From: Gemmatimonadota bacterium
GTDB taxonomy: Bacteria; Gemmatimonadota; Gemmatimonadetes; Palauibacterales; KS3-K002
Assembly (NCBI GenBank): GCA_036475815.1
Contig: JAZGAL010000021.1
Coordinates: 1 to 49,446, forward strand
Direction: 5' to 3'
Length of the DNA: 49,446 bases
Shown here: in pieces, positions 20,135-34,832 of the stretch
Numbering within the stretch: position 1 is the stretch's first letter
Layout: every line of letters begins with the position of its first letter
Position numbers and translations under genes: made by a program
Notes under the pieces: generated by a model
Database searches by the model: none
The model's input: the letters and a program-made list of their open reading frames with translations, nothing else
Told to the model about the DNA's origin: nothing

Positions 20135-20779
20135 TCACTGCTGATTACTGAAATCGCGGCCGCCGTCACCGCGGTACCGGTAGCGGAAGGTGACGCAACC
20201 GGGTCGTCCGCCGGGACAGTAATAACCGAGGAACCGCAGGACTGCGTACTTGCCGTCGGCCGTGCGGATCGCGTAGGCCCGGTCGGCGGGCCGCAGCAAG
20301 TGGGAGATCCAGCTGTAGTCGTACCAATTCTCTAAGGCGCGGTTACGGGACATCTCCCCAGACCCCGCGTCCTTCACGTAACCGCTGTCCGGGAGCACGA
20401 GCGCCGAATCGATCCTGGCGGTCCCCAGGTCGATCACACCCGCCCGCCCTCGAGGGTTCGTGGCGCCGCCGTTGCTGATTATCCTGTGCCGCTGAAAGGC
20501 GATGTCCCAGTCCAGGGAGCGTCTCGACTCGATGCTGACCACCGAGCCGCGGGAGAAGTCGAAGTAGACCCAGCGGTCGTGGGACGTGGCATCCACCGTG
20601 TGGTTGCGGGGACCGACCGACCTCTCGCCGACTTCCTCCGGTGACGGCGGCGACGGCGACGGCACAAAGGTCTCGACTTGCGGCTGCACAAGGCTGCTGG
20701 CGACCACACCGGCGATCAGCACCACGAATAGAAAGCCAACGGTGCTCAGTACTATTGTGGACAGTCTGGGCATCGGCAT
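20135..20779 (-). CDS. HmuY-family haem-binding protein with N-terminal membrane anchor
   Basis: VDATSHDRWVYFDF, WDIAFQRHRIISNGG, WYDY and IRTADGKYAVLRFLGYY..G..TFRY motifs typical of HmuY-like proteins. Confidence 0.75.
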   Translation of the reverse strand: MPMPRLSTIVLSTVGFLFVVLIAGVVASSLVQPQVETFVPSPSPPSPEEVGERSVGPRNHTVDATSHDRWVYFDFSRGSVVSIESRRSLDWDIAFQRHRIISNGGATNPRGRAGVIDLGTARIDSALVLPDSGYVKDAGSGEMSRNRALENWYDYSWISHLLRPADRAYAIRTADGKYAVLRFLGYYCPGGRPGCVTFRYRYRGDGGRDFSNQQ

Positions 20780-22829: not shown

Positions 22830-22867
22830 TTTACTCACTCGCCGGCAGCGCTTAGGCTAGGGTCATG
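22830..22867 (+). promoter_or_regulatory. Putative sigma70-type promoter giving a leaderless transcript of the radical SAM gene
   Basis: TTTACT-N17-TAGGCT-N6-ATG(22865), with no Shine-Dalgarno. Confidence 0.5.
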
Positions 22868-24184
22868 TTTCGGAGCCATGTCATTTCCTGGAACCTCACC
22901 AAGAAGTGCAACCTGCGCTGCGAGCACTGCTACATCAGCGCGGGGCGCATATCGAAGGCGGAGGCGCAGGACGAGCTCTCCACCGAGGAGTGCTTTCGGG
23001 TCATCGATCAGATCTGCGAGGTGAATCCGGAGGCTCTGCTGATCTTAACGGGGGGCGAGCCTCTGCTGAGGAAGGACGTTTTCGAGATCGCCTCCCACGC
23101 CGACTCGAAGGGACTGTGGGTGGTCGTGGGGACAAACGGTGTGCTGGTCACCGAAGAGTTGTGCCGACGGGTGATCGATGCGGGGATCAGGGGCGTCGCC
23201 CTCTCGCTCGACTCGCTGGATCCTGCGACGCACGACCTTTTTCGCGGTGTCCAGGGTGCTTGGGACAACACCGTGAACGGCTCCAAGGTGCTGCGCGCGG
23301 CCGGTCTCCCGTTCATCATCCAGACGACGATCGGCAAGCACAACCTCGGGTCGATCCTGGACCTGGCTCGCTTCGCCTACGAGCTCGGCGCCCGTGTGTT
23401 CAACCTCTACTTCCTCGTGCCGACCGGCCGGGGTGCGTACACCAGCGACATCACGGCCCAGGAATATGAGGATACTCTGACGCAGTTGATTGAACTGCAG
23501 AAGGAATTCGCGGGCGTGATGCTCGTGAACTCCAAGTGCGCGCCCCATTATCAGCGGCTGCTCTACCAGCACGACTCCGACTCCCCATTCCTGAAGAGCT
23601 TCGCCGGCGGCGCGGGTGGCTGCCCTGCCGGGACGCACTATCTGGGCATTCGCCCGAACGGCGACATGACGCCCTGCCCCTACCTGCCGGTCTATGGCGG
23701 TAACCTGCGGGAGAAGACGTTCAGAGAGATCTGGGAGACATCGTCGGTTTTCACCAGGATCCGTGAACGCAACTCGCTGGGCGGTCGCTGTGGCGCTTGT
23801 GAGTTCAACGAGGTATGCGGCGGTTGCCGGGCGCGAGCCTACGGAGCCACGGGTGACTACCTGGCCGAAGATGCATGGTGTGTGTACGAGCCGGGCGAGT
23901 ACGGATTTCAGACGATCAGCTTCGAGGGGAAGACGACGTACGGGCTGGAGGTGGAGGGCAAGCTGCCATGGACTCCGGAGGCAAAGGGCCGGCTGGGTAA
24001 CGTGCCGTCGTTCGTGCGCGGCATGCTAGCGAAGCGTGTCGAGTCGTACGCGGGCGAAATGGGTTACGAGGAGGTAACCGCGGCCGTCATGCAGGAGGTG
24101 CGTGAACGCGTGATGAGCGGCCGAGTGGGCAACGTTCCACCTTTTGTGCGGAAGATGCTGGCGGGAGAAAACCCGTCTCGCTAG
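22865..24184 (+). CDS. Radical SAM/SPASM enzyme of AhbD/NirJ type (haem biosynthesis-like) with C-terminal PCP_red-like domain
   Basis: SWNLTKKCNLRCEHC, LTGGEPLLR, LVPTGRG and CAPHY. SPASM cysteines CPAG..PCPY..CGACEFNEVCGGCRARA..C. Tail WTPEAKGRLGNVPSFVRGML..VE.YA...G...VT. Confidence 0.8.
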   Translation: MFRSHVISWNLTKKCNLRCEHCYISAGRISKAEAQDELSTEECFRVIDQICEVNPEALLILTGGEPLLRKDVFEIASHADSKGLWVVVGTNGVLVTEELCRRVIDAGIRGVALSLDSLDPATHDLFRGVQGAWDNTVNGSKVLRAAGLPFIIQTTIGKHNLGSILDLARFAYELGARVFNLYFLVPTGRGAYTSDITAQEYEDTLTQLIELQKEFAGVMLVNSKCAPHYQRLLYQHDSDSPFLKSFAGGAGGCPAGTHYLGIRPNGDMTPCPYLPVYGGNLREKTFREIWETSSVFTRIRERNSLGGRCGACEFNEVCGGCRARAYGATGDYLAEDAWCVYEPGEYGFQTISFEGKTTYGLEVEGKLPWTPEAKGRLGNVPSFVRGMLAKRVESYAGEMGYEEVTAAVMQEVRERVMSGRVGNVPPFVRKMLAGENPSR

Positions 24185-24194
24185 GCTACCAAGC

Positions 24195-25706
24195 ATGACT
24201 CTCGGCGCGCTGCGAAAGAGCGGCCCAGTTCCCGACCGGGCCGAATTCGGCCGACTGGCCGGAAGTGCCGATCTGGTTCCCGTCTACAGGGAGATCCCCT
24301 TCGACGATGAGACGGCGGTCACCGCCTTCAGCAAGATCGCCGATCCACCCTTCGGATTCCTGCTCGAGTCGGTGATCGGCGGCGAGAAATGGGCCCGCTA
24401 CTCTTTCCTCGGTACCGGCGCAGTCGCCGCCTGGCGGCTGCGCGACCGCGAGCAGGACGTTTGGTCGCCTGAGAGCGGCTGGACACGGAGCGGTAGCACG
24501 GATGACCCGCTCGCCGCTCTGCAGGAGGTCATGCCGGGCCGACAGGTGGCGGAGCTGCCGGGTCTCCCGCGCTTCTGGGGTGGCGCCGTTGGGTATTTCG
24601 GCTACGACCTGGTACGCTTCTTCGAGAACCTGCCGAAGCCTACGGCGGCGGCGCTCGACGTACCCGATGCGCTGATCATGTTCAGCGACGTCGTGGTCGC
24701 GGTGGACAAGTTGTTCGACCGCGCCCTGGTCATCGCTGTGGCGCGGACGGGCGACGGTTCGGCGGCGGAAGCGTATGACGGAGCATTGGCGCGGATCGAC
24801 TCGACGATCGACCGGCTCCGCTCGCGCCCGGCGCCGGGGCCGCTGCGGCTGGATCCCGAAGCGTCTCCTGCGCGCTGGACCTCCTCGTATGATAGACGCG
24901 ACTTCGAGCGCGACGTCGATCGGATCCGCGAATACATTCGTGCGGGTGACGCGTTCCAGGTCGTACTGTCACAGCGGCTTACGGCCGAGCTCGAGGCCGA
25001 GCCGTTCCAGATCTACCGGACACTCCGAACGCTCAACCCGTCTCCCTATCTGTTCTACCTGGATCTGGACGGTCTCCAGCTCATCGGTTCGTCTCCCGAG
25101 GTGATGGTGCGGGTGGAGAACGAGCGGGTGATCGTGCGGCCGATCGCGGGCACGCGGCCGCGCGGGCTGACCGAGACCGAGGACATGGAGTTGGAAGCCG
25201 AGCTGCGCGCGGACGAGAAGGAGCGAGCTGAACACTTGATGCTCGTGGATCTCGGCCGGAACGACGTGGGTCGCGTGGCCCGCTATGGCAGCGTGAGCGT
25301 GCCCGAGTTCATGACGGTCGAGCGATACAGCCACGTGATGCACCTCGTGACCCAGGTGGAGGGGGAGCTGCAGGATGGACTCACCGCCTTCGACGCCTTC
25401 CGCGCCGCGTTCCCCGCCGGCACAGTCAGCGGTGCTCCCAAGATTCGGGCGATGGAAATCATTGACGAGCTGGAGCCGGTTCGTAGGGGGCCCTACGCGG
25501 GCGCCGTGGGCTACCTGTCCTACGACCGCAAGAACCTGGACACGGCCATCGCGATCCGCACCATCCTGGTGGAATCGGGCAGGGCTCACGTCCAGGCGGG
25601 GGCGGGGATCGTTGCCGACTCCGTTCCGAGCCGGGAATACGAGGAGACGCTGGGCAAGGCCCAGGCGCTGTTGAGCGCGTTGGCGGTCACGCGCGGTCGC
25701 TCGTAG
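24195..25706 (+). CDS. trpE: Anthranilate synthase component I
   Basis: FLLESV, GGAVGYFGYD, FQVVLSQR, NPSPY, GSSPE, PIAGT, EHLMLVDLGRND, PAGTVSGAPK, QAGAGIVADS. Confidence 0.9.
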   Translation: MTLGALRKSGPVPDRAEFGRLAGSADLVPVYREIPFDDETAVTAFSKIADPPFGFLLESVIGGEKWARYSFLGTGAVAAWRLRDREQDVWSPESGWTRSGSTDDPLAALQEVMPGRQVAELPGLPRFWGGAVGYFGYDLVRFFENLPKPTAAALDVPDALIMFSDVVVAVDKLFDRALVIAVARTGDGSAAEAYDGALARIDSTIDRLRSRPAPGPLRLDPEASPARWTSSYDRRDFERDVDRIREYIRAGDAFQVVLSQRLTAELEAEPFQIYRTLRTLNPSPYLFYLDLDGLQLIGSSPEVMVRVENERVIVRPIAGTRPRGLTETEDMELEAELRADEKERAEHLMLVDLGRNDVGRVARYGSVSVPEFMTVERYSHVMHLVTQVEGELQDGLTAFDAFRAAFPAGTVSGAPKIRAMEIIDELEPVRRGPYAGAVGYLSYDRKNLDTAIAIRTILVESGRAHVQAGAGIVADSVPSREYEETLGKAQALLSALAVTRGRS

Positions 25707-25743
25707 AGGCTGCGGTACCAGGCGGCCGAGGGCAGCTGCTGTC

Positions 25744-25781
25744 TTGACACCATTCGGAGGCCGATCTAGGCTCCAACTATG
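25744..25781 (+). promoter_or_regulatory. sigma70-type promoter, probably leaderless, for the 25779-27770 operon
   Basis: TTGACA(25744)-N17-TAGGCT(25767)-N6-ATG(25779). Confidence 0.65.
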
Positions 25782-26180
25782 GACTTGGGCCCCAGCCACA
25801 TAGTTGAAGCATCCGGTCAGGCGGTAGACGGGCACACCGCGCTCGCGCGGAAGTATCACGGTGCCGCCGTCTTCTATTTCGGATACGGCGTCTATTACCT
25901 CGCTCGCATCATAGCACTGGGGTGGCGCAGCGACTGGAACCGCCACGGCTTCAGTCCGGCTCTCGCCTGGGCCTTCATCTTCGTAGGCATCCTCATCACC
26001 GTCGCTTTTCCCTATTTCATATGGCGCCAGGTCCGCTGGTTCGCCATCGCGCTGGCCGTCGTGGTGTTCCTCCGGTCGGTCTACTTGTTCAGCCAGGGCA
26101 ACGTCGACTTCTTCCTCGCCCCCTTCCTCGTGAGCGCAGCGGCGGCGTGGATGCTGGCGCGTGCGGCCTGGGACCTCTGA
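25779..26180 (+). CDS. Small hypothetical membrane protein (about 4 TM)
   Basis: Hydrophobic ORF with typical codon usage, directly behind a consensus promoter and 5 nt before mrp. Confidence 0.65.
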   Translation: MDLGPSHIVEASGQAVDGHTALARKYHGAAVFYFGYGVYYLARIIALGWRSDWNRHGFSPALAWAFIFVGILITVAFPYFIWRQVRWFAIALAVVVFLRSVYLFSQGNVDFFLAPFLVSAAAAWMLARAAWDL

Positions 26181-26185
26181 GCGCC

Positions 26186-27073
26186 GTGAAGAAGCTCCGT
26201 ACTTACTTCCAGCTCCCCGATGGCACGGCGTCCGATATCGCTGGCCAGCTAGCCGTCAAGACGAAGCGGCTTCAGCGCCGCCTGGCGGCGGTCCAGCACG
26301 TCTTCGCTGTCATGAGCGGCAAGGGCGGAGTGGGTAAGAGTGTCATCACCGCCAACCTGGCGGCGCGTCTGGCTGACGAGGGTCTCTCGGTCGGTGTGCT
26401 CGACGCCGATCTCAACGGCCCTTCCATGGCCCGGCTGCTGGCAGCGAACGGGGAGCCGCTGCGGGTGACTGAGCGCTCCGTCGAACCGGCGGTCGGATCG
26501 GCTGGTGTCAAAGTCATGTCCATGGACCTGCTGCTGGCGGGCGAGGCGACACCCGTGGAGTGGGGCGGCCCCCAATCGGAAACCTTCCTTTGGCGTGGAA
26601 CGCTGGAAGCGAACACATTGAGAGAGTTCCTCTCCGACACGGCTTGGGGCAACCTCGACTACCTCATACTGGACCTTCCGCCGGGAACGGACAGGATCGC
26701 GCCGGTGCGCGACCTGCTGCCCACCCTGGGTGGTGTGATCGTCGTCACGGTGCCGTCCGAGCTGTCTCGGTTCATCGTGGGGAAATCGTTGACGTTGTCA
26801 CGGGAGATGGGTATCCCCGTGCTCGGATACGTGGAGAACATGTCGGGCTATGTCTGCCCGCACTGCGGAGAGGTGGGGCGGTTGTTCGATTCGGCAAGCG
26901 TGAGTTTCGAGGATGTGCCACGACTTGCGGGCTTGCCGTTCGATCCCGAGTTCGGACGAGAGACGGAGGCCGGACGTCCTGACGTCTTGCGGCGACCGGA
27001 CACCGAGGTAGGCCGCGGGATCCGTGTGATCGCCTCCGCAATCAGAGAGCACTTCGAGGGCCCAAGATCATGA
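26186..27073 (+). CDS. Mrp/ApbC/NBP35 Fe-S cluster carrier ATPase
   Basis: SGKGGVGKS, DADLNGPS, WRG, DLPPGT, ENMSGYVCPHC. Start GTG 26186; no N-terminal DUF59-type domain. Confidence 0.88.
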   Translation: MKKLRTYFQLPDGTASDIAGQLAVKTKRLQRRLAAVQHVFAVMSGKGGVGKSVITANLAARLADEGLSVGVLDADLNGPSMARLLAANGEPLRVTERSVEPAVGSAGVKVMSMDLLLAGEATPVEWGGPQSETFLWRGTLEANTLREFLSDTAWGNLDYLILDLPPGTDRIAPVRDLLPTLGGVIVVTVPSELSRFIVGKSLTLSREMGIPVLGYVENMSGYVCPHCGEVGRLFDSASVSFEDVPRLAGLPFDPEFGRETEAGRPDVLRRPDTEVGRGIRVIASAIREHFEGPRS

Positions 27074-27507
27074 AGTTCCTGTGCGTAGACTGCGACGCCC
27101 AGATGGCATCGGTGGAGAAGACGCTCCCCGGCGACGGGACTCTGGCGCTGGTGTTCCGTTGCCCGGCCTGCGAGCGCGAGATCGCCATGTTGACCAACCC
27201 CATGGAAACACAAATGGTGAACAGCCTTTGCGTGGACGTGGGTGGCCGTGCCGTGCCGGAACAGCCGTTCGAGTTGGTTCGCTCCCAGCTCAAGACCGGC
27301 GGCGAGGACGCGTTGCGGGATATGCCCGGCTCCGCGGAGCCGACCTGGAGTGAGGAAGCGGAGGCCAGGCTGGGCCGCGTGCCGGGTTTCGTTCGAGGTA
27401 TGGTGCGTCGTCTCTACGGCGAGTGGGCTCGCGATCGCGGCATAGCCGAGGTTACGCTGGCGATGATGGATGAAGCTCGTTCAGATCTCGGGCTGGAGGG
27501 CATGTGA
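27070..27507 (+). CDS. Zn-ribbon (CxxC...CxxC) plus PCP_red-like domain protein
   Basis: CVDC and CPAC. C-terminal WSEEAEARLGRVPGFVRGMVRR...ARDRGIAEVT. Overlaps both neighbours by 4 nt. Confidence 0.75.
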   Translation: MKFLCVDCDAQMASVEKTLPGDGTLALVFRCPACEREIAMLTNPMETQMVNSLCVDVGGRAVPEQPFELVRSQLKTGGEDALRDMPGSAEPTWSEEAEARLGRVPGFVRGMVRRLYGEWARDRGIAEVTLAMMDEARSDLGLEGM

Positions 27508-27770
27508 GCGAAGCGGGGGAAGTGCGGAGCGAGGGGTTCTCCGAATTGAACGGGGTGCTGGTGCGGGTGGACCACGATATCTGTGTGGGCTTCTCCGACT
27601 GCGTGGTGGCGGCGCCGGAGGTGTTTTTTCTCAACGATGATAATCTGGCGGTCGTCGTCGAGCCCGACGCGGTGGATCTCGACACCCTCAAGCAAGCCGC
27701 CGGCGTCTGCCCTGTGAGCGCGATCTTGCTGTTCGGCGAGGACGGGACGCCGCTCGATCTCGATGCTTAA
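27504..27770 (+). CDS. Small monocluster ferredoxin (probably [3Fe-4S] type)
   Basis: VDHDICVGFSDCVVAAPEVF...AAGVCPVSAI. Only three Cys, the second canonical Cys is absent; acidic. Confidence 0.8.
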   Translation: MSEAGEVRSEGFSELNGVLVRVDHDICVGFSDCVVAAPEVFFLNDDNLAVVVEPDAVDLDTLKQAAGVCPVSAILLFGEDGTPLDLDA

Positions 27771-27794
27771 GCCGGTTCGAGGGTGGCCGTTTTG

Positions 27795-27823
27795 TTGACA
27801 GGTGGAGAGCGGGTCGCTATACT
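27795..27823 (+). promoter_or_regulatory. Near-consensus sigma70 promoter for the USP / bd-like / aa3 operon
   Basis: TTGACA(27795)-N17-TATACT(27818). Confidence 0.8.
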
Positions 27824-27842
27824 CGCACGACTATTAACAAGA

Positions 27843-27859
27843 ATAACGATTCTCGTTAT
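27843..27859. promoter_or_regulatory. Palindromic operator, Fur-family box-like
   Basis: ATAACGA-TTC-TCGTTAT is a perfect 7-3-7 inverted repeat. 27842-27860 matches GATAATGATAATCATTATC at 14 of 19 positions by my count. Confidence 0.55.
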
Positions 27860-28043
27860 CGTTGGATGTCTTGAGGCGGGGATATCGAATCCGCCGCCGT
27901 TTCCAGGTTCCGGGGCTACCACCGCTGTTCCGACAACCGAGTCTCTAACTATGGTATCGATCGCGGGTCGCGATCGTTCTTGGATATAGCTATGCGTTGA
28001 TCCTCAAGAGCTGATCTCTTAAACCCTAGGCACCGAGGGATAA

Positions 28044-29780
28044 ATGTACAAAGAGATCTTCGTTCCGTGTGACAACTCACAGGAGTGTAACTACGCTATC
28101 CACCGGGCCATCGAGTTCGCTCGGACATGCGGCTCGGAGATAGTGGGTAATCACGTTTACGCGGCGAAACTCCACGATGTGCGGTTCCGCCAGCTCGAGT
28201 CCGGGCTGCCCGCGCGGTTCCAGTCGAAAGACGAAATTCAGCACCAGCGAAAGATTCACGACAAACTGATCGAGAAGGGTCTGCAGCTGATCAGCGATTC
28301 CTTTCTAGACGAAATGGAGAAGCAGTGCCGGGCCGCGAGTCTGGAAATGAAGCGGCAGCTGCTGGAGGGCATCCATTTCGAGGAGGTCGCCAACGAGGTC
28401 AACTCAAACGGCTACGACCTCTGTGCCATGGGCGCTCACGGTTTGGGTCGCCAGCCACACTCGCAACTGGGCGGCGTAGTGTCGCGAGTGATGCGAAGAA
28501 TCGAGAAGGACCTTCTGATCGCTCGGGCGGACGCCCCGCTCGAGGGCGGGCTGTACTTGGTGTGTGTGGACGGTAGCTCGTACAGCTACCGGTCCGCGAA
28601 GATAGCGCTGGCGCTTGCGCGCACGTTCAATGCAGAGGTTCAGTTGTGCAGCGCGTTCGACCTCGATTTCCACCACATAGCGTTCAACAACATCAAGGAC
28701 GTCCTCAGCTATCAGGCGAGCCGTGTCTTCAAGTTCGAGGAGCAGGAAGAGCTCCACAACAACATCATAGACAAGGGGCTGCTCAAGCTCTGCCAGGCGA
28801 ATCTCATGAGGGCGGAAAAGATGGCCGAGGAGTACCCGGACGTGTCGGTCGGCAGTCAGGTGCTCATCGGCAAGCCGTTCGAGTGCATCCTGAAATACAT
28901 CGAGGAACTAGAGCCTGCCCTTCTGGTTCTGGCTCGCCACGGCGCGCACCGCATCGAGGGCACCGACATGGGCTCGCAGGTCGAGAACCTGGTCCGCATG
29001 GCACCCTGCAACATCCTGCTCACCGGCACCGTAGGCGTGAGTCCCGAGGATGTGCCGTGGATCGAAGAGGATGGCGTGCCCGGGCTCGAGTGGGACCCGC
29101 TGGCAGCGGTGCGCATCCAGCGGGTGCCTCCGTTCGCGCAAGGGATCGCACGCAACGCCGTCGAGGAGTGGGTCGAGGAGCAGGGTGGCGAGGTGGTCAC
29201 CAACGATCTGCTGGACAGAGCTATCCAGTCGCTGCTCCCCACCCATATGCAGCTGGTTATGGGCATCGGCCGGGCGGAGGAGATCGCCCGCGCCGAGCTC
29301 ACGGCCGAGGAGGCGCTGGCCGATCGTCCAGTTCCCATGTGTCCAATGGGCAGCGATCGGGAGGCAGCCAGGCGGCGCGCGCGCAATGGGATCACCTGGG
29401 CCTTGGATGCCTGGAATCGCCTGGAGCTCGTTCCGCTCATCGCCAGACCGTTGGCTCGATCGACCGTCGAGCGCTTCGCCAGGGATGGCGATATCGAGCA
29501 TGTGACCGTGCAGGTGATGGACGGGAACAAGCAGGCCATGATCGAGGCGGACACATTTGACATCGACACGATGATGGTGATGTTCAGCGAGCTCCGCGCC
29601 CGGGAGATCCGCGCAGGTGCGGAAGGCGATTCCGCCGAGTTCACAGAATCGGCCGACGTCGGCAAATGCCCTATCCGGGAGGTCCAGGAGATGCTCGACA
29701 GGCGCGCGAGCCAGACCGGGCCAGGGAACGGAGACGGCGGCAGCGCTCAGGGCGCTGACGCGCCCCGCTCGAACGCCTGA
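28044..29780 (+). CDS. Tandem universal stress protein (2x USP) fused to two PCP_red-like domains, with Cys-Pro motifs
   Basis: IFVPCDNS...MGAHGLG..LGGVVSRV; LVCVDGSSYS...ARHG..MGSQVENLVRMAPCNILL; WDPLAAVRIQRVPPFAQGIARNAVE; WALDAWNRLELVPLIARPLARSTVE; MCPM and KCPI. Confidence 0.8.
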   Translation: MYKEIFVPCDNSQECNYAIHRAIEFARTCGSEIVGNHVYAAKLHDVRFRQLESGLPARFQSKDEIQHQRKIHDKLIEKGLQLISDSFLDEMEKQCRAASLEMKRQLLEGIHFEEVANEVNSNGYDLCAMGAHGLGRQPHSQLGGVVSRVMRRIEKDLLIARADAPLEGGLYLVCVDGSSYSYRSAKIALALARTFNAEVQLCSAFDLDFHHIAFNNIKDVLSYQASRVFKFEEQEELHNNIIDKGLLKLCQANLMRAEKMAEEYPDVSVGSQVLIGKPFECILKYIEELEPALLVLARHGAHRIEGTDMGSQVENLVRMAPCNILLTGTVGVSPEDVPWIEEDGVPGLEWDPLAAVRIQRVPPFAQGIARNAVEEWVEEQGGEVVTNDLLDRAIQSLLPTHMQLVMGIGRAEEIARAELTAEEALADRPVPMCPMGSDREAARRRARNGITWALDAWNRLELVPLIARPLARSTVERFARDGDIEHVTVQVMDGNKQAMIEADTFDIDTMMVMFSELRAREIRAGAEGDSAEFTESADVGKCPIREVQEMLDRRASQTGPGNGDGGSAQGADAPRSNA

Positions 29781-29844: not shown

Positions 29845-31638
29845 GTGAACGCGCGCGGCCTGATCCGGACTGCGTGCCTGGCGCTGGTGGTGGCCCTGCT
29901 GCTGACGGCGGGCGCCGACCCGGCCTGGGCTCAAGCGGGGGCGGACGGCATCCGCGAGTACGGCAACTTCCCGGTTGTGGGCAGCAGGGTCGCCGTCTGG
30001 GTCGCCGCTCAGGTGCACCTGATGTTCGCCGCCTTCGTACTCGGGGTGCCGATGTTCGCGGTCGTGACCGAGGCGATCGGCATCTTCGGTAAGGACGAGC
30101 GCTACGATCGGCTCTCGAAGGAGTTCACGCGCCTCTTGCTTGTCGCGTATAGCGCGACGGCGCTCTGGGGCGCGACGCTGACCTTCCTGCTCATCACACT
30201 GTACCCTCGATTCACGATTTACCTGACTGCGATCTTCGACGTCTCGATCTGGTTCTACGTGGCGCTCTTCTTCTTCGAGTCGGCGACGCTGTACATCTAC
30301 TATTATGGTTGGGAGCGATGGAAGAAGGGTGGCGCCAAGCTCTTCCACTGGTCTCTGGGCATCCTGCTGAACGTCTGGGGCACCGCGGTACTGTTCATCG
30401 CCAACAGCTGGCTCAGCTACATGATGAGCCCGCCGGCGGAAGTGACGCCCGATACCGCTCCGGCGCAGGTGCAGTTCTGGAGCGCCTTCGCCAACGCTAC
30501 TTGGATGCCCATCAACATCCATCGATTGATCGCGAACGTGGTCTTCGGTGGCGCGATCGTCTCCGCGTACGCCGCCTTCCGTTTCCTCTCTGCCCGCGAC
30601 CAGGAGGAACGGGCCCACTACGACTGGATGGGTTACGTCGGCAACTTCATCGCCATCGGCGCGCTGATCGTGCTGCCTTTCGCCGGCTACTGGCTGGGCC
30701 GGGAGATCTACGAGTACAACCAGGCCATGGGCATCACCATGATGGGCGGGTTCATGAGCTGGCTGTGGATCATCCAGGCGTTTTTGATCGGCGTGCTTTT
30801 CCTGGCCGGCAACTACTACCTGTGGGTGGGGATGGGCCGCATCCCGGGCGCTGAGCGCTTCACACCCTACACCAAGTGGATGCTGCTGGTCTTGATCGCT
30901 GGGGTCATCGTCTGGGCGACGCCTCACACGATGATAGCCAGCCGGGAAGAACTGGCGGCCATGGGCGGGACGCACCACCCCTTCCTGGGGGTCCTCGGCG
31001 TTATGAGCGCCAAGAACACGGCTGTGAACCTGATGATCCTGACGACGTTCCTGTCGTTCATGCTGTACCGCCGGGCCAACAAGCGGCCCGTCGTGAGCTG
31101 GGTGAAGCAGGGCACGATCGTTCAGGGCATGGCGCTGGGGCTGGCGGCGGCCGTCGTGGTCTTCTACGGAATCTATGGGTACTTCGTCACCGCCATCGTT
31201 CGGATCGGCTTCAGCGTCTATCAGGTTCTGACCGTATTGGCCGCCATGATCCTGGTGGTGGTCCTGGACATCCTCATGCTGCGAGGCGCGAAAGCGCGCG
31301 GGGCGATTCGCTGGGGTGAGATGCCCGCGCGCTCGCAATACGTGCTGATCGTGCTGGCCGTCACCTTCACCTGGCTCATGGGTCTGATGGGCTTCGCTCG
31401 TAGCGGCATCCGCCAGCACTGGCACGTCTGGGAGGTGATGCGGGATACGAGCCAGTGGGCTGCGACGCCGGCGCTCGGTTACGCGGGGATCATCATCAGT
31501 GCCTGCGTGCTGATCTTCCTCGCCATCGTTTCCTTCGTCTTCTGGATCGGCGGACTGGTGGAGAAGCCTGTCTTCGCCACGGCGAGGAGCAGCGGCGAGT
31601 CGGACTCGGGGCTGCTTCCACAGGTAGGAGGGGACTGA
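29845..31638 (+). CDS. Cytochrome bd-like oxidase subunit I homolog (CydA superfamily, Nitrospira bd-like type; no Q-loop)
   Basis: By-eye alignment to E. coli CydA: QVHLMF (His19), FFFES (Glu107), LFHW, ANSWLSYMMSP, NIHR (His186), IRQHW (GRQPW). Many TM helices and an apparent cleavable signal (AWA|Q). Start GTG 29845 follows GGGAG. Confidence 0.8.
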   Translation: MNARGLIRTACLALVVALLLTAGADPAWAQAGADGIREYGNFPVVGSRVAVWVAAQVHLMFAAFVLGVPMFAVVTEAIGIFGKDERYDRLSKEFTRLLLVAYSATALWGATLTFLLITLYPRFTIYLTAIFDVSIWFYVALFFFESATLYIYYYGWERWKKGGAKLFHWSLGILLNVWGTAVLFIANSWLSYMMSPPAEVTPDTAPAQVQFWSAFANATWMPINIHRLIANVVFGGAIVSAYAAFRFLSARDQEERAHYDWMGYVGNFIAIGALIVLPFAGYWLGREIYEYNQAMGITMMGGFMSWLWIIQAFLIGVLFLAGNYYLWVGMGRIPGAERFTPYTKWMLLVLIAGVIVWATPHTMIASREELAAMGGTHHPFLGVLGVMSAKNTAVNLMILTTFLSFMLYRRANKRPVVSWVKQGTIVQGMALGLAAAVVVFYGIYGYFVTAIVRIGFSVYQVLTVLAAMILVVVLDILMLRGAKARGAIRWGEMPARSQYVLIVLAVTFTWLMGLMGFARSGIRQHWHVWEVMRDTSQWAATPALGYAGIIISACVLIFLAIVSFVFWIGGLVEKPVFATARSSGESDSGLLPQVGGD

Positions 31639-31662
31639 TGAGAGCGGGTGGGCGGCGCTGAC

Positions 31663-32457
31663 ATGTTCGCGACCAACCTGAAGATCGCCATCGTCGTCGT
31701 CTTGACGCTCGCGGCGTACACGCTGTTAGCCAACATGATCCCCCAGATCGAGTCGGAGGTACCGGAGGAGTTCAATCTCTCGGGAGAGATTACGGCGGAG
31801 CGGCTGGTGGCTGCGGGTGAGCGTATCTACAACGGCGCGGGCGGTTGTACGGTGTGTCACGGACTGGGTACGCGCGCGCCCAACCTCTTGAGGTCGGAGG
31901 GGAATCTGGGCCGGATCGGAGCGCGCTGCGACCGCCGTGAGAGCGGGTTGGATTGTAAGGAGTACCTTTTCAGGTCCTTGACCGAGCCCGCAGGCTACGT
32001 GGTCGAAGGCTACAACCCGATCATGCCGGACGTGCGGCGCATCCTTTCCGAAGATCAGGTCTGGACGCTGGTGGCCTTCCTGGAGAGTCTGGGAGGGGAA
32101 GTGACGGTGACGGCCGACGATCTGACGCGGTGGGATGCCGGCGAGCAGGAAGAGGCGGCGACCGGCACATCCGGCGTCTCGTTGTCGTCTACGAGTGATC
32201 CGTTGGAGCTGATGACCGAGCTCGGGTGCTTCGCTTGTCATCAGCTGGGTGACTTGGGGAACGCCATTGGACCGCCGCTCACGGATGTGGGAGCGCGGCG
32301 CGAAGCGGAGTACATCCGCGAGTCGATCCTGCGGCCTCGTGCGGACATCAGCTCCGGTTACGAGACGTTTGCCGGTATGATGCCCGCGGATTTCGGCGAC
32401 CGCGTGACCGCCGCCCAGCTGGAGGCGCTGGTCGAATTCCTCGCCGCGCAACGGTGA
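31663..32457 (+). CDS. Membrane-anchored dihaem c-type cytochrome
   Basis: N-terminal TM segment, CTVCH...IMP and CFACH...MMP. Confidence 0.88.
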   Translation: MFATNLKIAIVVVLTLAAYTLLANMIPQIESEVPEEFNLSGEITAERLVAAGERIYNGAGGCTVCHGLGTRAPNLLRSEGNLGRIGARCDRRESGLDCKEYLFRSLTEPAGYVVEGYNPIMPDVRRILSEDQVWTLVAFLESLGGEVTVTADDLTRWDAGEQEEAATGTSGVSLSSTSDPLELMTELGCFACHQLGDLGNAIGPPLTDVGARREAEYIRESILRPRADISSGYETFAGMMPADFGDRVTAAQLEALVEFLAAQR

Positions 32458-32464
32458 CGTGCCG

Positions 32465-33277
32465 ATGTCGATGAATCGGATCAGAGAATATCTGCGCCAT
32501 CCTTTCTGGCAGGCTCTCCTGCTGATGTTCCTGGCCTACCTGATATTCGAGTTCGGGATCGAATACGTGCCCCCGCTGCTCGGCATCCGCAGCGCCCCGG
32601 TCCCCGACAGTGTGTTGATCCAGTATCTGCTGACCGCGCTGGTCGGCATTCTCATCTACGTAAGCGACAACGAGGCGCGTTGGGACAGGTTCAAGGAGCC
32701 GATCAAGACCTTGCTCGTCGATCCGGGCGCGCGTTGGCTTCGGGTCACGCTGATGGTGGCTTTACCGCTCTTCGTGGGCTGGTTGACCTATAGCCAGGTG
32801 AGGCCTGGCGTCGCCGCGCCCCTCCAGCTGCGCTCGATTCACCCGGCCCCCCCGACCTCCATTAGCTTCCGCGGCCGCAGGATCGAGCTGGCGGGGCTCG
32901 AGAACCCGCTGCGCGCCGATGGCTCGATCAGCGAGGACTACGAGGACGGTAAGCGGGTCTACTATCAGAATTGCCTGCCCTGTCATGGCGACTTGCTCGA
33001 CGGCAGCGGCCACTACGCCCACGGGTTCAATCCCAGACCTCTGGCGTTCACGGACAACGGCACCATCCCGCAGCTCACGGAGAGCTTCGTCTTCTGGCGG
33101 ATAGCCAGGGGCGGACCCGGTCTGCCGACGGAAGGGGCGCCGTGGAACTCGGCGATGCCGGCTTGGGAGACCATCCTCACGGAAAACGAGATCTGGGCGG
33201 TCACGATCTTCTTGTACGAGCAGACGGGCTGGACCCCACGAACGTGGGAAGACGCCGAGGGGGGTGGCCATGAGTAG
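32465..33277 (+). CDS. Membrane-bound monohaem cytochrome c (3 N-terminal TM helices)
   Basis: Three hydrophobic segments, CLPCHG, distal SAMPAW. Confidence 0.85.
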   Translation: MSMNRIREYLRHPFWQALLLMFLAYLIFEFGIEYVPPLLGIRSAPVPDSVLIQYLLTALVGILIYVSDNEARWDRFKEPIKTLLVDPGARWLRVTLMVALPLFVGWLTYSQVRPGVAAPLQLRSIHPAPPTSISFRGRRIELAGLENPLRADGSISEDYEDGKRVYYQNCLPCHGDLLDGSGHYAHGFNPRPLAFTDNGTIPQLTESFVFWRIARGGPGLPTEGAPWNSAMPAWETILTENEIWAVTIFLYEQTGWTPRTWEDAEGGGHE

Positions 33278-34832
33278 CATCGCGGCCGCTCGCGTGATGG
33301 CGATCGGATTGACCGTCCTGGTCCTGGCGTCTGAAGCGGCGACGCAGGATCTGGAGCGTGGCCAGCGGCTGTACGATCGCTGGTGCGCCGAGTGTCACGG
33401 CGTGGACGGAAAGGGCGACGGCTCGGCAGCGGCGTACATGCTGCCTCGACCGCGAGACTTCACTATGGGTATCTACCAGATCCGGACGACGCCCAACGGT
33501 GAGCTGCCCACGGACGAGGATGTGGAAAGGATCATCAGGGTCGGCATGCCGGGCACGGCGATGCCGGGCTGGGAGTCGAAGTTCAACCAGGGGGAGATCC
33601 GCGACGTGGTGGCTTACATCAAGACCTTCTCGCGGTTCTTCGAGCAACTCGGCGAGCCGAACCCGCTCGCTTTCGGGAAACCGCCGCGTCTCACTGAAGA
33701 GGGACTGGCGGAAGGGCGCCGGTTCTACAGGGAGATCGAGTGCTTCAAGTGCCACGGCGATGCGGGCCGGGGTGACGGGCCTTCGGCGCCGACGCTCCAG
33801 GATGACCTCGACTTCCCGGCACGGCCGGCCGATCTCACCAAGAACTGGACCTTCAACGGCGGGGGCACCGTCGACGAGATCTACCGGCGGTTGCGCACAG
33901 GGCTCGACGGCTCGCCGATGCCGTCGTTCTCCGACTTGATCGACTCCGGATTCATGACGGACGAGCAGCTGTGGCACGTAGCACAATACGTTCGCAGTCT
34001 GGCACCGGATGACCCTCCGAGAGTGCGCGAGGTCATCACTGCCACGCTGGTTGAGGCTGAACTGCCTGCGTCTCCTGACGACCTGTTGTGGGATGAGATC
34101 GAGCCGCTCTACATCCCGATGGTCGGTCAGGTGATCCGGCAGACTCGCTGGTTCGCGCCCACCGTGGACGGACTGTGGGTGAGAGCGGCGCACAACGGCG
34201 AGGAACTGGCGTTGATGATCACCTGGCACGATCCGTCCCGGAGCCCCGATCCCGCCTGGCTCGAATGGCAGCAGTGGATCGCGCAGTCGGTTTATCCCTT
34301 CCGGGAGACCGGCGGAGCTGAACGATTGCCCGACCGCTTGACCGTCCAGTTTCCAATGTCGATCCCTACCGGCCGCGAGCGCCCGTATTTCCTGATGGGC
34401 GATTCCCGCCGGCCGGTTTACCTGTGGCAGTGGATCAGTGATCCCGAGGAGGCTCTAGAAGCGCGCGCCACCGGGCTTGGCAGTGCGCAGGCCTTGGCCG
34501 CGGGGAGCCGGACACTCACCTGGTCCAGCTCCTGGGACCAGGGAGAGTGGCGGGTGCAGTTCCGGCGCCGACTGGCTACGGCGGATTCCGTCAATGCACT
34601 TCAATTCCTCTTGGGAGAGGCGATTCCAATAGCCTTTTTCGCCTGGGACGGCTCCAACGGCGAGAGCGGAACGCAGATGGCTATCAGTTCGTGGTACGCA
34701 ATTCATCTCCAGCAACCGGCATCGTCGACCGTCTACTTATCGCCGGTTGCGGCAATGCTGGCTACGGCCGCCCTGGGCTTCCTGGTCATCTGGCGGGCTC
34801 AGCGGCGCGAAGAAGAGGAACGGTCCTCGTAA
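33270..34832 (+). CDS. Dihaem cytochrome c fused to an ethylbenzene-dehydrogenase gamma-like (EB_dh/DOMON) haem-b domain, with C-terminal TM anchor
   Basis: Signal peptide; CAECH..TAMP and CFKCH..SPMP; PYFLMGD..PVYLWQW and IAFFAWDGSNGE..ISSW; hydrophobic C-terminal helix. Confidence 0.82.
   Translation: MSSIAAARVMAIGLTVLVLASEAATQDLERGQRLYDRWCAECHGVDGKGDGSAAAYMLPRPRDFTMGIYQIRTTPNGELPTDEDVERIIRVGMPGTAMPGWESKFNQGEIRDVVAYIKTFSRFFEQLGEPNPLAFGKPPRLTEEGLAEGRRFYREIECFKCHGDAGRGDGPSAPTLQDDLDFPARPADLTKNWTFNGGGTVDEIYRRLRTGLDGSPMPSFSDLIDSGFMTDEQLWHVAQYVRSLAPDDPPRVREVITATLVEAELPASPDDLLWDEIEPLYIPMVGQVIRQTRWFAPTVDGLWVRAAHNGEELALMITWHDPSRSPDPAWLEWQQWIAQSVYPFRETGGAERLPDRLTVQFPMSIPTGRERPYFLMGDSRRPVYLWQWISDPEEALEARATGLGSAQALAAGSRTLTWSSSWDQGEWRVQFRRRLATADSVNALQFLLGEAIPIAFFAWDGSNGESGTQMAISSWYAIHLQQPASSTVYLSPVAAMLATAALGFLVIWRAQRREEEERSS

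Follow-up and report, generated by a model that had tools for sequence, protein, structure and literature searches.

The bd-like oxidases of the OR-N type are regarded as the principal terminal oxidases in Nitrospira, Nitrospina and Ca. Manganitrophus, and the passages on these enzymes describe their subunits, cofactors and assembly as lacking experimental confirmation (PMC10839748, PMC12342949, PMC9040806). According to the parts of the Murali et al. preprint that treat the OR-N CydA family, its members have lost the quinol-binding site, have 10 or 14 transmembrane helices depending on the subfamily, and are encoded in operons with genes for alternative electron donors (cytochromes c). Nitrospira, Nitrospina and anammox bacteria are described as sharing a conserved, highly transcribed cluster of a bd-like gene, two cytochrome c genes and an alternative NxrC gene (passages in PMC6606698 and PMC9040806). 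With respect to haem synthesis, AhbD and ChdC are unrelated enzymes that catalyze one reaction, the conversion of coproheme to haem b (passages in PMC7242693 and PMC13564367). AhbD is considered the anaerobic alternative to ChdC (PMC13564367, in the same passages) and is also found where the coproporphyrin pathway operates (PMC13564367, PMC7242693). We analyzed a 49,446-nucleotide stretch of a Gemmatimonadota genome (GCA_036475815.1, contig JAZGAL010000021.1; "the window" hereafter is this whole stretch) in which PCP_red (PF08369), the small C-terminal domain of the protochlorophyllide reductase protein BchB/ChlB, occurs four times in three neighboring genes beside an OR-N type CydA homologue. 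The three genes encode a radical S-adenosylmethionine (SAM) protein, a Zn-ribbon protein and a tandem universal stress protein (USP). We consider it somewhat probable that this PCP_red set consists of cytoplasmic helpers for the oxygen-independent supply of haem b and its hand-over to the complex of OR-N CydA, cytochromes c and a haem b protein encoded next to it.

PF08369 (gathering cut-off 32.5 bits) was found by Pfam hmmscan in all three proteins, at residues 369-413 of the radical SAM protein (60.5 bits, E = 1.6e-16), at residues 93-137 of the Zn-ribbon protein (57.1 bits, E = 1.8e-15) and in two stretches of the USP protein (64.7 bits in sum). When the whole assembly (2.5 Mb, 77% complete) was searched in six frames, exactly four matches appeared, all above the cut-off and all within this cluster on the + strand. 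Copy 1 lies in the radical SAM gene (23969-24103, 59.2 bits), copy 2 in the Zn-ribbon gene (27346-27480, 58.7 bits), and copies 3 and 4 in the USP gene (USPa, 29091-29222, 35.8 bits; USPb, 29397-29522, 38.8 bits). An earlier note on this DNA had proposed four such copies across three neighboring genes, recognized by a W-x3-A-x2-R...VP...VT motif, and both proposals were borne out; in an alignment of 15 copies W5, A9, R12, P17 and T41 show no variation, and V16 reaches at least 90% conservation. The BchB/ChlB model TIGR01278 aligned only over its last 50-65 positions, with 33-44 bits versus cut-offs of 490-912, and Pfam detected no Oxidored_nitro domain in the radical SAM, Zn-ribbon or USP protein.

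In an AlphaFold2 (AF2) model, the PCP_red copy of the Zn-ribbon protein forms three helices with a predicted local distance difference test score (pLDDT) >90. Foldseek matched it to 2kru (TM-score by target 0.76, root-mean-square deviation (rmsd) 1.6 over 54 columns; 41% identity), to ChlB (2ynm_D, rmsd 1.6 over 48 columns) and to Asr4154 (2l09). The copy in the radical SAM protein likewise has three helices in its model (pLDDT 70-91). Disordered or low-complexity linkers tether the domain in the Zn-ribbon protein, in the radical SAM protein and in the ChdC fusions described below. A compact domain of this kind, well folded and flexibly tethered in three different host proteins, would be better suited to docking or hand-over than to serving as a fixed lid on an active site, and its function may be docking or porphyrin binding. 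In the loci of family f2 (e.g. L034:10598-11100), a low-complexity stretch of about 100 residues interrupts the first PCP_red copy of the USP protein between its second and third helices.

In the 15-copy alignment, a distinct conserved signature marks each of the four positions. In a tree of 78 copies, those of the Zn-ribbon protein, USPa and USPb each formed one clade with support of at least 100/99 (USPa, 100/99; USPb, 100/100); the tree rests on 57 columns, which resolve the positional classes and not the order of their origin. Given these separate clades and signatures, the four positions are old paralogues that have been maintained separately, and their position-wise conservation predates the split of the Gemmatimonadota families. 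Beyond this phylum, a PF08369 profile search at E <= 0.001 among 1.84 billion representatives returned 1701 clusters (50% identity), and many of the cluster proteins hold 2-6 repeats. The cluster members that carry names belong to Nitrospinota, Ca. Manganitrophus and an anammox bacterium. The Pfam architectures of 60 of the 150 listed PF08369 proteins were scanned and comprised 23 Usp+PCP_red proteins, five radical SAM/SPASM+PCP_red proteins, two PCP_red+rubredoxin-like proteins and 30 with PCP_red only; BchB was found in 0 of the 60. A rubredoxin-like domain was also present in four of the 23 Usp+PCP_red proteins, and in loci L087 and L065, too, the USP-PCP_red protein includes a fused Zn-ribbon/rubredoxin-like element. 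The small size of the domain (45 amino acids) and the arrays of 2-6 copies are what would be expected if PCP_red were a generic helical oligomerization domain with no tetrapyrrole meaning, its copies having arisen by domain shuffling in an inherited cluster; the literature passages on dark-operative protochlorophyllide reductase (DPOR), moreover, do not describe a role for it. We consider this explanation very improbable, because each copy has kept its position since before the Gemmatimonadota families split and because all enzyme fusion partners seen are tetrapyrrole enzymes.

The gene that follows the USP gene (29845-31638, +; start uncertain, with GTG 29845 likely) encodes a bd-like CydA homologue. 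Its match to PF01654 covers only profile positions 2-243 of 418 (80 bits). BLASTP identity to Nitrospirota bd-like proteins is 34-57% with E values of 1e-73 or lower; with respect to bd-like CydA proteins of that phylum, identity is 34-49% for four and 39% over residues 14-364 for a fifth, versus an E value of only 4e-10 against canonical CydA. A crude hydropathy scan showed about 12-14 hydrophobic segments. Three cytochrome genes follow (31648-34832, +), encoding a dihaem cytochrome c, a monohaem cytochrome c and a dihaem cytochrome c fused to an EB_dh/NxrC-like haem b domain, with CxxCH counts of 2, 1 and 2 and a DMSO_red_II_gam match of 83.7 bits among them. Relatedness to Nitrospirota bd-like proteins and the three downstream cytochrome genes are the two features that place the homologue in the OR-N type. 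With a CydA-like subunit, five haem c sites and an NxrC-like haem b domain, the neighboring complex would need many haems. Two further observations concern CydA-like genes elsewhere in the Gemmatimonadota. Genomes G116, G034, G179 and G052 hold a second CydA-like paralogue of 49-53% identity away from the helper set (on G116:C8, G034:C93, G179:C1 and G052:C98), and the CydA-like matches in G266, G325, G099, G230 and others contain one in-frame stop (TGA or TAA).

Comparison within the Gemmatimonadota showed that the PCP_red fusions and the bd-like gene occur together. PF08369 matches occurred in 37 of 60 relatives, usually as four matches within about 6 kb. Twenty of these 37 positive loci, all from the same order and selected by their PCP_red match, were compared. 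All 20 contain genes for Mrp, the Zn-ribbon-PCP_red protein (ZnPCP), ferredoxin (Fd), the USP protein, the radical SAM protein (rSAM), CydA-like, cytc1 and cytc2, with four PCP_red copies each, and 19 also have the haem-b/cytochrome c fusion gene (cytcEB); the contig of the twentieth stops earlier. The full loci compared in other families of the class (6/6) share the arrangement Mrp-ZnPCP-Fd ... USP-rSAM-CydA-like-cytc1-cytc2-cytcEB, followed by a haem-copper oxidase operon. The window's own family differs from the others in having the radical SAM gene at the head of the cluster. Thus, the helper set adjoins bd-like CydA and cytochrome c genes in all 26 complete Gemmatimonadota loci.

The same association was seen at the level of genomes. 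In a sample of 301 Gemmatimonadota genomes (completeness of at least 85% requested; CydA-like matches at E <= 1e-30), 103 had PF08369, 86 had a CydA-like gene, 17 had PF08369 only and 198 had neither. All 86 CydA-like-positive genomes had PF08369, with exactly four matches in 75. These counts include G230, a genome flagged as unpublished, without which they become 102 for PF08369, 85 for CydA-like and an overlap of 85/85, of 300. Sixteen of the 17 PF08369-only genomes had one or two matches, and the 17 include G109 with its four-copy set; when five of the 17 were checked, BchB was found in three (two above the cut-off, one truncated at 453 bits) and in neither of the other two. Within families the distribution of PCP_red and the CydA-like gene is patchy and the two features track each other, as in family f3, where 43 of 125 genomes have PF08369 and 39 the CydA-like gene. 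Among 201 Nitrospirota genomes, 95 had PF08369, 69 a CydA-like gene, 26 PF08369 only and 106 neither, and again all CydA-like-positive genomes (69/69) had PF08369. The 26 PF08369-only genomes consist of 23 with a single match and three with 5-10; of the latter, G342 has a CydA fragment at a contig edge, and the other two are G358 and G490. When both phyla are pooled (502 genomes), PCP_red was present in 155 of 155 OR-N-positive genomes and absent from 304 of 347 OR-N-negative ones. The expectation that the three fusions would travel with one another and with the bd-like gene therefore held, both in the 26 complete loci and in the 86/86 and 69/69 genomes.

Independent support for the suggested tetrapyrrole link of PCP_red came from coproheme decarboxylase fusions. 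Three single-copy Nitrospirota loci were examined, and all three encode a Chlor_dismutase/ChdC-like protein that begins with a PCP_red domain, joined to the rest by a Pro/Ser/Ala-rich linker of 70-90 residues. Both domains were present in 35 of 46 relatives, the named ones belonging to Leptospirillum or Leptospirillia. The enzyme fusions of PCP_red seen in this analysis, to BchB, an AhbD-like radical SAM protein and ChdC-like proteins, thus all involve tetrapyrrole enzymes. We also looked at the haem pathway of cluster-bearing genomes. The window's own genome (G000, 77% complete), G031 and G117 each have a ChdC-like gene, and the radical SAM gene of the cluster is their only strong AhbD-like gene; neither HemN nor HemF, nor a second strong AhbD/AhbC-like gene, was found in the three. 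Five Nitrospirota genomes comprised three that resembled the cluster-bearers, one without either enzyme and one small assembly with a true HemN, and the phototrophic relative G155 has HemN and HemF instead. The presence of a ChdC-like enzyme, with HemN and HemF not found, fits a coproporphyrin pathway with coproheme as the substrate but does not prove it. An AhbD-like gene in G014 (302.8 bits) was rejected as an orthologue of the cluster's radical SAM gene, since its product has no PCP_red and is 31% identical to that of the window. The ChdC-like protein of the window's genome (L166:2630-4027, on G000 contig C192; 465 amino acids) carries a C-terminal Rieske [2Fe-2S] domain, which the homologue in G031 (281 amino acids) does not.

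The radical SAM/SPASM gene itself (22865-24184, +; Pfam Radical_SAM, SPASM and PCP_red) encodes an AhbD/NirJ2-like protein. The NCBIfam AhbD model (TIGR04545) gave 347.3 bits over 339 of 339 model positions, short of the equivalog cut-off of 500, and the NirJ2 model gave 324.7 bits, also below its cut-off. The CX3CX2C motif (C15/C19/C22) is at least 90% conserved, SPASM (PF13186) was matched, and C253, C271, C309, C312, C318, C321 and C339 are invariant in 24 sequences. The AF2 model (predicted TM-score 0.80) has a linker at residues 356-362 (pLDDT <50) in front of PCP_red, and behind the domain lies a C-terminal tail (24119-24181, +; pLDDT <50) with a partial, VPxF-like fifth repeat at the extreme C-terminus (residues about 419-439). 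Phe427 of this repeat is invariant in 24/24 orthologues, and the tails in L052 and L053 gave weak hidden Markov model matches. Complex prediction for the radical SAM protein with USP residues 335-578 returned a score of 0.00 and a mark of 0.32 in a run whose controls did not fold, which counts neither for nor against binding.

The product of this enzyme is the point on which another explanation turns, namely that it makes a modified tetrapyrrole needed only by the OR-N oxidase or modifies a protein subunit, rather than making haem b, and is recruited to that substrate by PCP_red. The similar, sub-cut-off scores for AhbD and NirJ2 leave room for such a product, as does the ChdC-like enzyme that already covers coproheme decarboxylation. 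SPASM enzymes often modify peptides, PqqE and SkfB are the closest relatives by sequence in the PDB, and experimental confirmation of OR-N composition is "still lacking" in the words of a passage in PMC10839748. We nevertheless regard this as unlikely: the AhbD alignment spans all 339 positions, a gene for a precursor peptide was not noticed among the conserved genes, and PCP_red also occurs on ChdC-like proteins, which are isofunctional with AhbD, a parallel that fits coproheme decarboxylation best.

Under the haem b supply reading, each member of the set could be given a part. The AhbD-like radical SAM protein would decarboxylate coproheme to haem b when the peroxide-dependent ChdC cannot. 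Its [4Fe-4S] clusters may be loaded by the Mrp/ApbC-type P-loop Fe-S cluster carrier (26186-27073, +; GTG start at 26186), which matches PF10609 with 216.8 bits and the MrpORP and ApbC models with 223.7 bits (cut-off 450) and 148 bits, both below the cut-offs, and which has the Walker A motif GKGGVGKS and a CPHC motif (C212-P-H-C215). The electron for SAM cleavage might come from the small single-cluster ferredoxin (27504-27770, +; Fer4_13 and Fer4_15), whose three cysteines are at positions 27, 33 and 69; we infer from its CxxFxxC...CP pattern that it is of the [3Fe-4S] type. The Zn-ribbon protein (27070-27507, +), with a CxxC...CxxC ribbon, a disordered linker and its C-terminal Pfam match to PCP_red, could serve as a further adaptor. 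Conservation of its C5, C8, C31 and C34 is at least 90% across 39 sequences, and its AF2 model shows a three-stranded ribbon (pLDDT 69-83) and a disordered linker at residues 49-87 (pLDDT <50). The stop of the Mrp gene overlaps its start, an arrangement suited to translational coupling, and the Mrp and Zn-ribbon-PCP_red pairing is retained even in the divergent set of G109. PCP_red itself would be a tethered three-helix module that either docks the members of the set to each other or to a partner they share, or keeps hold of the tetrapyrrole while it is transferred.

The tandem-USP protein (28044-29780, +; Usp x2, PCP_red x2 and a C-terminal CP motif) may act as a nucleotide-sensing scaffold or regulator. 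PF00582 was matched with 109.7 bits in two stretches, and identity to Nitrospirota USP-PCP_red proteins is 33-37%. The ATP-binding USP motif, which we take to be G-2x-G-9x-G(S/T), is fitted inexactly by both domains; G130, G133 and G143 are invariant in domain 1, and G300, H302, G310 and S311 are conserved in domain 2. A (K/R)CP(I/V)R(D/E) motif was found in 27/27 Gemmatimonadota USP-PCP_red proteins (window 29650-29700, residues about 540-547), and 23 of the 27 have a second motif, CPVD(F/L). Presumably these CP motifs resemble haem-regulatory Cys-Pro motifs; a haem-regulatory role of the tail motif was considered and not adopted, since the motif is confined to Gemmatimonadota. A second conserved Cys-Pro, at 433-434, looks like a remnant of the rubredoxin-like knuckle of Nitrospirota USP proteins.

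Nitrospirota genomes show which members of the set belong together across phyla. A search with a USP-PCP_red alignment, whose first sequence is from Manganitrophus, yielded at least 583 relatives at one genome per species, and 78 of the best 80 were Nitrospirota-titled. A radical SAM-PCP_red gene directly follows the USP-PCP_red gene in 76 of these 80 best loci, its product being 41-57% identical to that of the window; in two of the other four the contig ends past the USP gene, and two have room but no radical SAM gene. The earlier note had counted Mrp and ferredoxin in the module, which stands for Gemmatimonadota, but neither was found beside the USP/radical SAM pair in the 80 Nitrospirota-dominated loci. 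The cross-phylum core is the USP-PCP_red and radical SAM-PCP_red pair, and Mrp and ferredoxin are Gemmatimonadota additions. In five Nitrospirota loci chosen for close coordinates, and so not a random sample, linkage to a CydA-like gene is seen: L151-L153 read CydA-like-cytc1-cytc2-cytcEB-USP-rSAM(PCP_red), L155 reads rSAM(PCP_red)-CydA-like, and in L154 the pair is divergent from the CydA-like gene. Typical Nitrospira-like genomes (e.g. G337) have 10-13 PCP_red copies over several loci, and some of the PCP_red proteins in such genomes are about 250-350 amino acids long with two or more copies.

A number of results speak against a haem b supply system dedicated to the OR-N complex. In none of the 80 Nitrospirota-dominated loci (0/80) does a CydA-like gene occur within 10 kb of the USP/radical SAM pair, and in 5/5 such genomes checked the bd-like genes are elsewhere, so exclusive dedication to the bd-like complex is unproven, where the earlier note had thought dedication probable, even with synteny in 26/26 loci and co-occurrence in 155/155 genomes. 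In G109 a divergent set with four copies sits on a 9.6 kb contig cut off within the radical SAM gene, yet only canonical CydA was found elsewhere in that genome; the set also occurs in G358 (canonical only) and G490 (none) with no OR-N CydA found. Genomes within a phylum share ancestry, so the 86/86 and 69/69 counts look more independent than they are. On the chemical side, the reaction of the radical SAM protein is putative, its AhbD score being below the equivalog cut-off and its NirJ2 score nearly equal. Cluster-bearing genomes already possess a ChdC-like enzyme, G341 has a true HemN and no ChdC, and the DPOR literature describes no role for PCP_red in the passages where helix 398-420 is covered.

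Several of these results would also be expected if the set were a general unit for low-oxygen haem b synthesis and regulation, a housekeeping alternative to ChdC with no dedication to the bd-like complex, and if the Gemmatimonadota linkage were an inherited operon accident. Their co-occurrence would then arise from the fitness of both for a microaerobic way of life. That the pair keeps its distance from CydA-like genes in the 80 loci, that G109, G358 and G490 have the set with no OR-N CydA found, that PCP_red-ChdC fusions occur in the canonical-CydA-only genomes G383 and G390, and that AhbD is known as an anaerobic ChdC alternative (PMC13564367, in the passages cited above) all point this way. 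Against it are PCP_red in every one of the 155 OR-N-positive genomes and its absence from 304 of the 347 OR-N-negative ones, synteny with the CydA-like gene in 26/26 Gemmatimonadota loci that recurs in Nitrospirota L151-L155, and the joint presence and absence of both features within families. We judge a general unit to be rather unlikely and retain haem b supply to the OR-N complex as the preferred reading. A bolder version of it, in which PCP_red is a dedicated tetrapyrrole-relay tag that accepts the product of (copro)haem- and chlorophyll-making enzymes and hands it on, or recruits the protein that acts next, operating via USP scaffolds with several PCP_red domains that sense nucleotide or energy state, and in which the helper set is the missing cofactor supply and assembly system of OR-N oxidases, is put forward tentatively, as an idea that we ourselves find doubtful.

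The wider context of the set agreed with the earlier description of an oxidase-flanked locus with Mrp/ApbC, ferredoxin and bd-like CydA genes; haem-copper oxidase operons flank the gene set on both sides. Two genes between the radical SAM and Mrp genes had been passed over. The first is a full-length trpE (anthranilate synthase component I; 24195-25706, +), which stands between the radical SAM gene and a membrane open reading frame (ORF) only in this window and is missing there in L051-L053, the other loci of the family. The second is that ORF (25779-26180, +), which encodes 133 amino acids with hydrophobic segments and has no Pfam or NCBIfam match; homologues were found only in L051-L053 (window's family, 61-70% identity) and L058 (28%). 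In the window's family this ORF follows the radical SAM gene, and small membrane proteins are also encoded after the radical SAM gene in Nitrospirota loci: a DUF4149 protein directly after it in L087 (13659-14165), and a CopD-like protein after two PCP_red-only ORFs in L065 (15260-15814).

Between the ferredoxin and USP genes, a terminator-like hairpin (27773-27789) is followed by a sigma-70-like promoter match (11/12; 27795-27823), and these consensus matches hint at two transcription units. The same position is occupied in L034 (7476-9190) by genes for an ATP-binding cassette (ABC) ATPase and an ABC-2 permease, and other f2 loci have a gap there; 17 of 20 loci have either the gap or the ABC genes. 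Also adjoining the helper set is an HmuY-like gene (window 20135-20779, -) whose product has a membrane or signal segment at its N-terminus; the gene stands beside the set in 17 of 20 same-order loci and in three of six loci of other families.

The helper set is built of known parts and is apparently undescribed, as literature term searches gave no mention of it. The main texts on OR-N oxidases, in the portions available (PMC10839748, PMC12342949, PMC9040806, PMC6606698 and the Murali et al. preprint), do not mention a USP, radical SAM and PCP_red helper set, and their supplements may list such neighbors; a full-text literature search by PF08369 domain names returned nothing relevant. The presence of the set in all 155 OR-N genomes of two phyla offers a concrete handle on the assembly and haem supply of these oxidases. 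The finding also proposes a role for PF08369 beyond chlorophyll synthesis and suggests that aerobes retain an oxygen-independent coproheme decarboxylase for low oxygen. If the relay-tag idea were true, the OR-N oxidases of nitrite oxidizers, anammox bacteria, manganese oxidizers and Gemmatimonadota would gain their missing assembly system.

Among known systems, the PCP_red domains of BchB/ChlB (2kru, 2xdq_B, 2ynm_D, 3aek_B) and the stand-alone Asr4154 (2l09) belong to the same Pfam family and have the same fold as the modeled copy. DPOR resembles the cluster in carrying PCP_red on a tetrapyrrole enzyme, but the three proteins of the window have no nitrogenase-like body, and PCP_red is found instead on radical SAM, USP and Zn-ribbon proteins as four paralogues. 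The likeness to AhbD (TIGR04545) consists of the full-length match, the CX3CX2C motif, the SPASM auxiliary-cluster cysteines and the occurrence in genomes of coproporphyrin type (cf. passages in PMC13564367), whereas the window protein differs in its sub-cut-off score, the extra PCP_red with a conserved tail and the pairing with a USP-PCP_red gene. ChdC/HemQ (PF06778) catalyzes the reaction proposed for the radical SAM protein, and ChdC-like proteins of Leptospirillia carry an N-terminal PCP_red on a long linker; its fold is unrelated, however, its chemistry is peroxide-dependent, and the ChdC-like protein of the window's genome has a Rieske domain and no PCP_red. The Mrp/ApbC/Nbp35 group (PF10609; MrpORP) shares the P-loop NTPase domain, GKGGVGKS and CxxC with the window's Mrp, which differs in scoring below the equivalog cut-offs and in its translational coupling to the Zn-ribbon-PCP_red gene. 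Finally, the OR-N clusters of N. moscoviensis ("bd-like_3 + alt_NxrC_2 + two cytochromes c") and Ca. Manganitrophus (TO_1) contain the same genes for the membrane part, and the Gemmatimonadota cluster differs from them in lying directly upstream of a haem-copper oxidase operon.

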